Below are positions 3,001 to 9,000 of a stretch of DNA of 28,791 nt, in pieces. Origin of the DNA: a virus (lineage: Duplodnaviria; Heunggongvirae; Uroviricota; Caudoviricetes); the IMG/VR virus record IMGVR_UViG_2534682161_000017, positions 1-28,791 of that record. One strand, 5' to 3'. The first letter of the stretch is position 1, and every line of letters begins with the position of its first letter. Position numbers: made by a program.

Positions 3001-6000
3001 TTTACCGGTTTATCACCGAAGTGTGGATGTATGATTGTCTTGATTTCATATCCGTCATACGGGACGTCAATTCTACGACTGGAGTCGTCGCGCTTCGGAT
3101 ATCCCTTTGTGATAATCAGGCGGTCGTACTCGCGGAACATAATTCGCTTATTCCAGTAGTCATTACACAAGCGATACTCTTCCGTTTTCTCTCCACGAAT
3201 CATGGCATCGAAGTATTCACATTTAACGGCAAGTTGCAGGTTAGCCATTACCTCACCTCCAGTCTCCATACCGCCTGACCAATCCGGCTGGCATGGGTAT
3301 CTTTGGATACTGTTCCGTCTTTAGCCATCTCCATAAGAATTTTGCGCAAATCTGCCGAACGCCATTCTTCATCAGGAAATTCCTTCTCCATTGCCAACCG
3401 CAGATTCCAGGTTGCCATCCTGAATGGATATTCCCCGCCGAGAGCTTTATCTTGCAGGGCAGCCCGGGAACGCATCACCTGAAAAACCTTCTCTTTTACA
3501 TTCATCATTTCGCCTCCTGCGGCGGTTCTGGTAGCGGCATCCAGTGGGTTACATTGCGGCTCTGCGTTTCGAAGAACTCCTCACCATTGCGGACGACATC
3601 AAAAAACTCACCGCCCCGATATTGCGCATAAAGAACGAATGCGCCATCACATAAAATAATTACGTGCTGACCGTCCTCTGGCACTCGCTCACTACAGCTT
3701 ATCCAACCATCCGGAGTTACCGGAGAGTTGCCAGACAGTGCGTTCTGCAATCGTTCCAGCTTAACGTATTCCTGAACCCTGTTTCCGTCGCACGCCTGAA
3801 GCCATTGCACAGCCTTTTGCGCATCAGTGTGAAAGGTACAAGTGCGACCGTCATCAAATTGCATTTCGTAGAGGTCAGCAACCTGTTTAAACTGCGTTTG
3901 TGGCAACTTGTAAGCCTGGCTTGCATGTACGGCACCATAGAGCATGGCTGCACGGCAGGCTTCATCAACCATAGCTTCTACGTTTTCGAGAAGTACGTAA
4001 CTGTACTGCTGCCCACTAACCCATTCTTTTCTGCGAGGTAATGCGCGTGGGTCCGCTACAATGGTTCGCAAACGTTCCAGAACAGCAGGCACTACCGGCT
4101 CTACTGCCAACTGACTGGCATATTTGTTAATGGTAACGATAAGCTCTTGCTCGGCCTCATCCAGACAATCACCGATACCTCGCCTGTCACCGTCAAAATC
4201 ATCGAAATCGGCGCGAATCCTGGCAACCTCCCGGATTGCGGACAACACCTCATCAGGAATTACCGGAGAGTTGGTTGACGTTTCCGCGATTTCCCGAAAA
4301 TTATTGGTTGACGAATTCTTGTTTTCCAGAAAGTTTCCGGACTGAAGCATGGCGACGCGGCAGGCGTTCCAGCCAGCTGTTCGCCCAAGCGCGTAAACTT
4401 CAGATGGCTCAAGATAATCAATGTCATGCCCGTCCTCATCGTCGTTCTCAGGTAATGCAGCAGGTACTACCGGTACTGGCGGAGCGGCGTAGACTTCAAT
4501 AATCCCATTATCAATAGGCCATTCTCCATCCTTGAGATAGTCACTTGTTCCGTCAACTTGCTGTTCAGCAATGTGGAATGCACCAACTGGCTCTGCCTCA
4601 AGCGAGGCCAGTGCAATTCGTGCCAGTTCCATTTGTTCGCCACGAGTAAGTCCGTTATCAAGCGGATTTTTAATGAACAATTCGATACGTTCTTTGGTAA
4701 TAGTGGTCATAGCTATTTCACCTTAATCTCAACATTTCGCAGCTTTAGCTCCACTGGCAGGTCTGACTTTCCGGTTAAAGCTAATGCGAGATTTTCTGGA
4801 GTAATGAGAGCTGTTATTGTTTTCCCCATCGCCAGACGAATAATCATTCGTATTTCGCGATCGTCACATGCTCCTGGTCGAACAATTGATATTTGTCCAT
4901 TCATCTCACTCTCCTTTGATGCGAATGCCAGCAAGCCAGTTTCTTATGCCGATATATTCAGCGTTCCTGAAACCGCTTTTTACATATATAAATGGCAAGC
5001 GAAGATTGTGACCATTGACTGCCAGGTAGTCTTTACAACCCTGTTCGGTGAAACAGCAGGTAACGAATTCATCAATATCTTTCACAGCAACGCGCCGCCA
5101 TTTTTCTGGTGGCTCTCGAAAGTTTTCGTGAAGTAGTTCGAGACGACGACTTTGGCGTTTATTGGCTTCATTGCCATCTTCATCAACCCAGACAATCCGG
5201 TCATAGTCATAATCAGCATCAACAACGATTTCGCGCTTTTGATACACACAAAACATAGGGTCTGACGTTATTCGATTATCCTGTGTTCGAATATTTTCAC
5301 CGATGATGCCAAACGAATCTGGTGCAGATTTTGTCTGCAACTCTTCGATACGTTCAGCCATCGCAGCACACTCTTCAAAGTTGCTTAATGCTTTTCGCTC
5401 CCATTCAGCGCATTGTTTTCTAAGCTCTGCAATCAGCTTGTCTTTGCCTTCCAGCTCAACACGCAGCTTCCCTACCGTTAGCGCAATTTCCTCGTTCTCC
5501 TGGTCGCGGCGTTTGATGTATTGCTGGTTTCTTTCCCGTTCATCCAGTAGCGCCTAGACTGGCCCCCTGAATCTCCAGACAACCAGTATCACTTAAATAA
5601 GTGATAGTCTTAATACTAGTTTTTAGACTAGTCATTGGAGAACAGATGATTGATGTCTTAGGGCCGGAGAAACGCAGACGGCGTACCACACAGGAAAAGA
5701 TCGCAATTGTTCAGCAGAGCTTTGAACCGGGGATGACGGTCTCCCTCGTTGCCCGGCAACATGGTGTAGCAGCCAGCCAGTTATTTCTCTGGCGTAAGCA
5801 ATACCAGGAAGGAAGTCTTACTGCTGTCGCCGCCGGAGAACAGGTTGTTCCTGCCTCTGAACTTGCTGCCGCCATGAAGCAGATTAAAGAACTCCAGCGC
5901 CTGCTCGGCAAGAAAACGATGGAAAATGAACTCCTCAAAGAAGCCGTTGAATATGGACGGGCAAAAAAGTGGATAGCGCACGCGCCCTTATTGCCCGGGG

Positions 6001-9000
6001 ATGGGGAGTAAGCTTAGTCAGCCGTTGTCTCCGGGTGTCGCGTGCGCAGTTGCACGTCATTCTCAGACGAACCGATGACTGGATGGATGGCCGCCGCAGT
6101 CGTCACACTGATGATACGGATGTGCTTCTCCGTATACACCATGTTATCGGAGAGCTGCCCACGTATGGTTATCGTCGGGTATGGGCGCTGCTTCGCAGAC
6201 AGGCAGAACTTGATGGTATGCCTGCGATCAATGCCAAACGTGTTTACCGGATCATGCGCCAGAATGCGCTGTTGCTTGAGCGAAAACCTGCTGTACCGCC
6301 ATCGAAACGGGCACATACAGGCAGAGTGGCCGTGAAAGAAAGCAATCAGCGATGGTGCTCTGACGGGTTCGAGTTCTGCTGTGATAACGGAGAGAGACTG
6401 CGTGTCACGTTCGCGCTGGACTGCTGTGATCGTGAGGCACTGCACTGGGCGGTGACTACTGGCGGCTTCAACAGTGAAACAGTACAGGACGTCATGCTGG
6501 GAGCGGTGGAACGCCGCTTCGGCAACGATCTTCCGTCGTCTCCAGTGGAGTGGCTGACGGATAATGGTTCATGCTACCGGGCTAATGAAACACGCCAGTT
6601 CGCCCGGATGTTGGGACTTGAACCGAAGAACACGGCGGTGCGGAGTCCGGAGAGTAACGGAATAGCAGAGAGCTTCGTGAAAACGATAAAGCGTGACTAC
6701 ATCAGTATCATGCCCAAACCAGACGGGTTAACGGCAGCAAAGAACCTTGCAGAGGCGTTCGAGCATTATAACGAATGGCATCCGCATAGTGCGCTGGGTT
6801 ATCGCTCGCCACGGGAATATCTGCGGCAGCGGGCTTGTAATGGGTTAAGTGATAACAGATGTCTGGAAATATAGGGGCAAATCCAGCGCCAGCGCAACAT
6901 TTGGATTAAAGGCAGCAATAAATTCAGCGTTTGCATAAGCCTGAACATCTGTTTCAACCAGGCAGTTAACATGACATTCTGCAATCACGCCTCCGGGTTC
7001 TCCTTTCCATTTTTGACAAACAAAAACTCCTGTTAAATTACCGTGCTGATTGACCGATGTATGCCCTACGATGTAGCTCCCCTTAGTTGCATTTTCCGCC
7101 GCCTCACGCAGTGCCTGATGGTTAATCTCGCTCATGTCACATCACCCTGAATCCGTTGCATTTACGTAAAAAATCGCAGATATAGCCCTTCATTTTTTCG
7201 TGCCAATCTCGATCATTCCCATTGCACCAACCATCAGGTGGAGTCCAGCTTTCTATCATAGCAGCCATTTTCTTTGCTTTCGCCGGAGTAGCTGTTGCGG
7301 TATCGCAGTAATGACGAGTGTCAACCAACGTATCCATACCATCGATATCAAGTACGCAAAACCATGTGTGATTCGGCATTTCAACAGATGGTATTTGTTG
7401 CCCACGTCGACGTTTATCAATAAGACATACACTCACTGCTTGCCTCCTTTACGCCACATCGCATTCAGATATTTGTTGTCATTAACAGAACCGAAACTCT
7501 TTCTTTTAAGCAATTCCTCTCTCGATGGCATTGGCTTTACGCGTTGGCGAATAATCATTTCTGCCGGAAGAATGCCGGGATTGTATGTAAGTCCTCTCAT
7601 GGTAAATTCCTCAGTCATTACTGATAGCGCCATAGCGTGATCGATAATTACGCAGGCGCGGGTCAATTTCAGGGAAGTGGGTATATGTGGCTTTGCGGAA
7701 TGGTCGGATTGATGTCTGGTAAATTCGCTCGCGTTCTTCTTTCTCTGCAAGCCATATACAGTGACGAAATTCCTTTTCCTCTTTCGTTTCCTGCGGTAGC
7801 GACATTATCCGGTCGTAGTTTTTCCTGAATTTATCCAGCACCTCCGATACGGAATTGCCGGAACAGCGGCGCGGGTCATCCGCACCATACTGAGGCGCTG
7901 GCATGATTTTCTCCTGATTAAATTGCGTGAATAGCGTGACGAGGGAAGGGGAGAGTTACTGGCTCCTCGTCTGGGTAGATAGGTTTGTTATGTTTGTGCC
8001 ACTCGACATGACATGACTTGCAGAGCCACATCACATCGGTTGGTTTGCTGTAGTCGCAGTGGTGCGCCTGTGGTTTACATTCTGATCCGCAGCACTCACA
8101 TTGTGGTGGTCGGATTAGCTTACCGTCGCGCAAAAAATTACCCACGATGATGTGGGCTTTTCTTTTCCATGGGTTGCTCTGAATGAACCGCTTTTTGGCT
8201 GCGTTACACCGTTCTCTGCCGCGTTCCGATGATTGATATTCTCTCCTTGCTGATACTCGATGTGGCAATCCCGCGCGCTCTTTGTCATATTCAGCCAGGC
8301 AAGCCCGGCAAGCGGCAGTTAATCCATCTCTGGATGCTCTTCTGATTTGAAAGTCCCTTTCTTCCTTCTGTTGATGGCATCTTGAGCAGATTTTCATATT
8401 CAGCTCCTAGAACGGAATATCCGAATCGTCGAAGTTCATAGGTGGTTCGCTGTGATTCCCTTGCTGCTGAGATTGCTGTCTTTGTTGCTGACCGTTATTT
8501 CGCTGAGGTGAAGACTGTTCATTGCCTCCTTGCTTGCCACCAAGCATTTGCATGGTTCCACCAACGCCTACGATAACTTCGGTAGTGAACCGATCCTGTC
8601 CGCTTTGATCCTGCCATTTTCTTGTCCGCAATTTGCCTTCAAGATAAACCTCAGAGCCTTTTCGCAGATATTCGCTGGCAATTTCTGCCAGTTTCCCGCT
8701 CATTACCACACGGTGCCACTCCGTCTGCTCCTTTTGCTCTCCAGTTTGCTTATCACGCCATTGTTCTGACGTAGCAACTGTAAGGTTTGCAAATGCCGTT
8801 CCTGATGGTGAATATCTGATTTCTGGATCATGCCCAAGGCGACCAATAATGATCACCTTATTTACGCCTCTGCTTGCCATTTATGCCGCCTGTTTTAGTT
8901 CGTTAACTCTGATGTTCATTACCTGAACGCATTTAGCCTGCGCCTCCTCGTTGCCAGCCATTAATTGCCAGTCACGCTGATAACGCTCGATGAGTTTTTT

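Follow-up and report, generated by a model that had tools for sequence, protein, structure and literature searches.

Positions 1 to 28,791 of the IMG/VR virus record IMGVR_UViG_2534682161_000017 (Caudoviricetes; the whole of this 28,791-nucleotide stretch is called the window below) contain a complete copy of the insertion sequence (IS) IS2 within an ea22-like gene, in an early-left operon that runs from a pL-like promoter towards the excision and integration genes xis and int. The insertion splits the ea22-like gene into an N-terminal stub of 96 amino acids (aa) and a promoterless C-terminal fragment; full-length Ea22-like protein is therefore lost, the only effect that is directly demonstrated, and this loss is likely to be the net effect of the insertion. 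A preliminary description of the same DNA had held that IS2 is likely to be polar on xis and int and may impair excision, a claim that finds no support once the N-like protein, the paired nut sites and the native terminator-like hairpins of the window are taken into account. We consider it probable that, after induction of a prophage with functional N, N-type antitermination would carry transcription through IS2, with a small to moderate effect on xis/int expression and on excision.

The layout of the operon is as the preliminary description had it: both the map of open reading frames (ORFs) and the promoter match place IS2 between pL and xis/int, about 5.3 kb downstream of the promoter and 2.9 kb upstream of xis, and the transposase genes, orfA and orfB, lie on the plus strand, antisense to the minus-strand pL operon. 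The product of the first gene of that operon is N-like and has an arginine-rich motif (NARNRRRARRQAQRE) at its N-terminus. The window contains exactly two copies of a boxA (GCTCTTTAAC) with the same 18-nt boxB (TCCCGCCGAAATGCGGGA) behind it, where no occurrence would be expected by chance, and the boxB is predicted to fold into a hairpin with a GC stem of 5-6 bp and the 6-nt loop CGAAAT. One boxA-boxB pair follows pL and the other follows cro, in what appears to be the canonical nutL/nutR arrangement. To judge from the sequence, the features that define a lambdoid N/nut system are all there, i.e. a small basic N with an arginine-rich motif, whose gene is the first of the pL operon, and boxA plus boxB in both early operons (Table 1).

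Further terminator-like hairpins lie along the native operon, and those upstream of xis imply that pL transcripts must be termination-resistant in order to reach xis and int. After induction, the N-like protein of the phage would modify pL transcripts at nutL, and the modified transcripts would then read through Rho-dependent signals in about 1.3 kb of untranslated antisense IS2 RNA, much as they would have to pass the terminators that the phage itself has ahead of xis. Expression of xis and int, and excision, would then be at most modestly reduced rather than blocked, and strong polarity is expected only for transcripts that lack N modification. Adhya, Gottesman and de Crombrugghe reportedly found in 1974 that polarity in the gal operon is relieved when transcription starts at lambda pL and is modified by N. 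For the operon of the window this release is the relevant precedent, rather than IS2 polarity on transcripts from the gal promoter.

Several observations weigh against this interpretation. The N-like protein matches Pfam N_peptide at E = 1e-3, below the gathering score. The characterised boxB loops are pentaloops, GAAAA in lambda and GACAA in P22; the 6-nt loop CGAAAT is unlike either, and it is the arrangement of the sites that suggests nut function. Finally, the antisense IS2 RNA is richer in C (29.4%) than in G (23.7%), the C/G ratio reaching 1.5-1.9 in places, opposite to the flanking phage RNA, in which G exceeds C; with this excess of C the orientation looks Rho-friendly, and a good Rho substrate where the polymerase is unmodified, so that some loss of downstream transcription is plausible.

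One may go further and suppose a strong polar block, in which IS2 starves xis and int of transcription, and the prophage excises poorly and becomes locked in. IS2 polarity is Rho-dependent (PMC8141534), and a block of this kind would draw on the rut-like base composition just described, on the position of the element between pL and xis/int, and on the length of RNA left without ribosomes: the reading frame of the ea22 stub ends after 14 codons of IS2, so that some 1.3-1.5 kb is probably untranslated. Against it stand the N-like protein and the paired nutL and nutR, intact by sequence, and the native hairpins upstream of xis, which would be passable only by antiterminated transcripts, as well as the relief of polarity reported for N-modified transcription from lambda pL; moreover, a pattern scan detected no intrinsic-terminator-like site on the minus strand within IS2. 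We regard a strong block as unlikely and prefer N-type read-through, and the IS2 insertion by itself gives no ground for counting the prophage as excision-defective.

As to the element itself, the preliminary description had reported a complete 1331-bp IS2 at 5550-6890 with GCGCC repeats, and the range and all of its figures are correct. Across this interval the order is GCGCC, the IS2 start TAGACTGGCCCCCTGAATCTCC, the IS2 end GGGGCAAATCCA and again GCGCC, the repeat directly abutting both ends of the element; 5 bp is the duplication length expected for IS2, and a 5-bp match at one fixed pair of positions would arise by chance in about 1/1024 cases. The inverted repeats are imperfect, with a 33-nt core (5564-5596 and 6845-6877) that is 79% complementary. 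orfB overlaps orfA in the -1 frame, and the A6G site is predicted to yield a programmed-frameshift OrfAB transposase. Over its 1331 bp the copy is 100% identical to copies in Escherichia coli MFDS1019527 and MFDS1022581; one of these is called intact by the NCBI Prokaryotic Genome Annotation Pipeline (PGAP), which lists it as 'IS3-like element IS2 family transposase, programmed frameshift', and MFDS1019527 holds 100%-identical copies at other sites. Thus every feature by which IS2 can be recognised in a sequence (length, inverted repeats, frames, duplication and identity) is present. With its ORFs and ends intact, and with identical copies elsewhere in the sibling strain, this copy is probably transposition-competent.

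The same locus is found in its empty state in MFDS1019527, a cattle isolate from Korea. An empty site of 1200 bp constructed in silico matched this genome at 100%, and there the site lies in an uninterrupted 894-nt gene, annotated as 'ead/Ea22-like family protein', and has a single GCGCC, on which the aligned left-hand blocks of the window overlap. Both prophages sit at the same ybhC/lambda attB site, with zero mismatches over the approximately 18.8 kb compared. Besides one gap, they differ only by the IS2 of the window and by an element of the IS3 family that interrupts the relative's 'TolA-like' gene, that is, by two independent IS events plus the gap. The comparison with an IS-free relative, proposed at the outset as a check, therefore finds the flanks of IS2 co-linear with a single homolog. 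IS-mediated rearrangement was rejected on the same ground, the flanks being exactly co-linear with the empty site.

The IS3-family element of MFDS1019527 is about 1.31 kb long (18735-20043 of the relative's sequence), has an annotated programmed frameshift and 'AL1L pseudoknot', and its transposase is antisense to pL. It lies in a 'TolA-like' gene of the pL operon, at a point that corresponds to window position ~11021-11024, inside an ORF (10136-11158, minus strand) that is intact in the window.

A megablast search with the occupied left junction turned up no occupied site in 5,426 complete E. coli genomes, and a 30-mer across it had no exact match in a contig collection that holds one genome per species and is hence uninformative on this point. 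It was the 96-aa product specific to the junction that alone led to the occupied site, in two NCBI draft assemblies that encode it, GCA_000194575.2 and GCA_037967425.1; the alignment to the first covered 3 kb on the left junction side (window 3845-6844, comprising IS2 and the left junction) at 100% identity. Since there are no substitutions in the flanks, nor in the IS relative to its sister copies, the insertion is evolutionarily recent, as had been suggested from the window alone, and it is a simple transposition inherited within one lineage that has been sampled more than once.

IS2 is multicopy, and the contig of one of the draft assemblies breaks at IS2, so that a repeat-collapsed copy misplaced in the prophage during assembly has to be considered. 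Nevertheless, both junctions are precise, the 5-bp duplication is perfect and its sequence is present just once in the empty site, and the same junction protein is encoded in independent assemblies, in one of them on a 270-kb contig that spans the whole of IS2. We find an assembly artefact barely credible and rejected it, here too because of the exact co-linearity of the flanks with the empty site.

Removal of IS2 and one GCGCC in silico restores a single minus-strand ORF of 297 aa, which runs from an ATG at 7135 to 4906 (stop codon included) and has the IS2 junction at codon ~82; the single Ea22/Ead-like ORF announced in the preliminary description is thus confirmed both in silico and in the IS-free relative. 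Residues 2-134 of the restored protein match Pfam Ead_Ea22 (PF13935; E = 6.6e-33, 114.7 bits against a cutoff of 27), so that an N-terminal Ead_Ea22 domain is present, together with a coiled-coil segment. The C-terminal ~150 residues (aa ~144-296) match phrog_3205, a PHROG of unknown function, and this domain gave no sequence match to any solved structure, the C-terminal domain of lambda Ea22 included. The two ea22 fragments would be better annotated as one IS-disrupted gene.

For an insertion into a gene of this kind one may also ask whether it was selected, loss of a pro-lysogenic Ea22-like function, or partial attenuation of the early-left operon, benefiting the host as an early step of domestication. 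The Ea22 proteins of lambda and of the Shiga toxin (Stx) phage Phi24B are reported to favour lysogeny over lytic growth (PMC7093339), and the insertion has been passed on, being present in at least two deposited assemblies. Moreover, three independent antisense insertions are at hand: the IS2 of the window, the IS3-family element in another pL-operon gene of the identical MFDS1019527 prophage, and an IS2-like element at 3153-4481 of NZ_CM151361.1 (an unrelated strain, isolated from human urine), which lies in the same orientation in a related ead/Ea22 gene, at a point equivalent to window ~6927 and 37 bp away from the present insertion, with the duplication CTCAG. In contrast, three events are a small sample, IS2 is joined to this ea22 stretch in just 1 of the 5,426 complete genomes, and the C-terminal domain is unrelated by sequence to that of lambda Ea22, so that function is not transferable. 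IS2 was found in 4,854 of these genomes (median, 4 places per genome), and in 2,865 records the best match to the IS2 query was at least 99% identical; with an element this abundant, chance hits in non-essential genes are expected, and the ea22-like gene is a non-essential accessory gene. Selection for this insertion therefore seems very unlikely to us. We are just as doubtful that IS3-family elements repeatedly hit the ea22/early-left region antisense to pL and are retained there for weakening early-left expression or removing a pro-lysogenic factor, as a first, selectable step of prophage grounding: three events are too few to establish either a hot spot or selection.

Table 1. Features of the window and blocks of identity to the prophage of E. 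coli MFDS1019527 (positions in the window)
Feature	Position	Strand	Details
Lambda att core (attL), adjoining ybhC (1-1284)	1331-1345	+	GCTTTTTTATACTAA; exact match
int	1419-2489	-	356 aa; lambda-type arm-binding and catalytic domains (Pfam Arm-DNA-bind_1, Phage_integrase)
xis	2467-2685	-	72 aa; Pfam Exc, E=3.9e-41
Three terminator-like hairpins	2962-2943, 2931-2912, 2735-2716	-	Between ea genes and xis; pattern scan only
ea22-like 3' fragment	4906-5554	-	Coiled coil and C-terminal domain (phrog_3205); sole own start is internal ATG 5361
Left target-site duplication	5550-5554		GCGCC; read from sequence
IS2 (IS3 family), complete	5555-6885	+	Exactly 1331 bp; 100% identity to annotated IS2 copies
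Left terminal inverted repeat of IS2 (IRL)	5555-5596	+	Starts TAGACTGG
orfA / insC	5646-6011	+	121 aa; Pfam HTH_Tnp_1, E=1.8e-19
Slippery heptamer	5963-5969	+	A AAA AAG, in orfA frame; read from sequence
orfB / insD	5969-6874	+	301 aa; HTH_21, rve, rve_3 (DDE integrase core)
Right terminal inverted repeat of IS2 (IRR)	6845-6885	+	Ends AATCCA (last letters AAATCCA)
ea22-like 5' fragment	6845-7135	-	82 native codons and 14 from IS2 IRR; 96-aa truncated product
Right target-site duplication	6886-6890		GCGCC; read from sequence
abc2	7611-7904	-	
ssb	8407-8880	-	
Rad52/Erf-like	8881-9588	-	
Terminator-like hairpin	11145-11124	-	Inside native pL operon; pattern scan only
N-like antitermination protein	11727-12032	-	101 aa; first pL-operon gene; phrog_271 'anti-termination protein N-like', E=3e-36
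nutL, putative	12140-12180 (boxB 12140-12157)	-	boxA GCTCTTTAAC; boxB hairpin TCCCGC-CGAAAT-GCGGGA; between pL and N
pL-like promoter	12227-12255	-	TTGACC, 17 nt spacer, TATCTT; consensus match only
nutR, putative	13856-13898 (boxB 13881-13898)	+	Same boxA, identical boxB; directly after cro-like ORF
Block identical to MFDS1019527 prophage	1-5554		100% identity
Block identical to MFDS1019527 prophage	6885-11024		100% identity
Block matching MFDS1019527 prophage	11021-20176		99.99% identity, one gap

The prophage that carries the insertion is a P22/Sf6-like mosaic, the two parts set against each other being 1331-2685 and 7600-28791. The att core of lambda next to ybhC makes it a lambda-attB prophage, Int and Xis are of lambda type, and the early region matches phages of the Sf6/CUS-3/IME10 type. 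Apart from the IS2 genes, all ORFs from 12032 down to 1419 are on the minus strand. The order from pL is the N-like gene, two unknowns, cIII and kil-like small ORFs, Rad52/Erf-like, ssb, an HNH-like endonuclease and abc2, and after abc2 there follow DUF2737, DUF7739, ea22::IS2, three small unknowns and a DUF551 protein, xis and int.

Some other genes of the window deserve mention. The HNH-like endonuclease ORF between abc2 and ssb (159 aa, 7918-8397, minus strand; phrog_2340, E=2.6e-47) may be a homing-type endonuclease, and its annotation is inconsistent: none is called in the identical DNA of MFDS1019527, and in the two draft assemblies one has the 159-aa gene, the other a 38-aa opposite-strand gene alone. 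The DUF551 ORF (401 aa, 3505-4710, minus strand), with the domain at its C-terminus, is open throughout, and PGAP splits the identical sequence in MFDS1019527 into three pseudogene fragments, each a partial DUF551. A 98-aa ORF of unknown function (12467-12763, minus strand; phrog_18389) lies between pL and the repressor gene (12804-13541), followed by a strong bidirectional terminator-like hairpin at 12443-12462; it occupies the rexAB position of lambda and is a candidate for a lysogen-expressed moron. ORFs of 499 aa and 721 aa at 23524-27189 are, by size only, candidates for a P22-type terminase and portal.

Full-length IS2 is also present in other temperate phage and prophage records, namely Shigella phage SfX (int::IS2), Stx2a_1447/WGPS2, PhiR11_1 and Stx2c_JNE082642, where it lies at other sites, the ea22 junction occurring in none of them; the copy in the window shows no difference from IS2 of E. 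coli except for the insertion site. The insertion puts another copy of a known element into a gene that is not essential; it is ordinary, and matters little beyond annotation. The window and MFDS1019527 nevertheless form a near-isogenic natural prophage pair, one with IS2 in ea22 and the other with an IS3-family element in the TolA-like gene, which could be used for measuring N-type suppression of IS polarity or for testing the function of the Ea22 variant.

The disrupted gene resembles lambda ea22 in its place in the early-left operon, past the recombination genes and ahead of xis, and in the N-terminal and coiled-coil part of its product; Ea22 is described as a protein of three domains, with a coiled coil that joins the N-terminal to the C-terminal one (PMC10834534). 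In contrast, the variant of the window, at 297 aa, has a C-terminal domain unrelated by sequence; since only the N-terminal and coiled-coil part is common to the two, a pro-lysogenic role for this variant is speculative.

With regard to polarity, an IS2 insertion in the pR operon of lambda, r32, is polar. The classical polar IS2 insertions of the gal operon (galEP3/gal3) likewise place the element within an operon and ahead of the genes of interest, as in the window; they differ from the present case in that the operon of the window is transcribed from pL across a nut site, and the phage has an N of its own.

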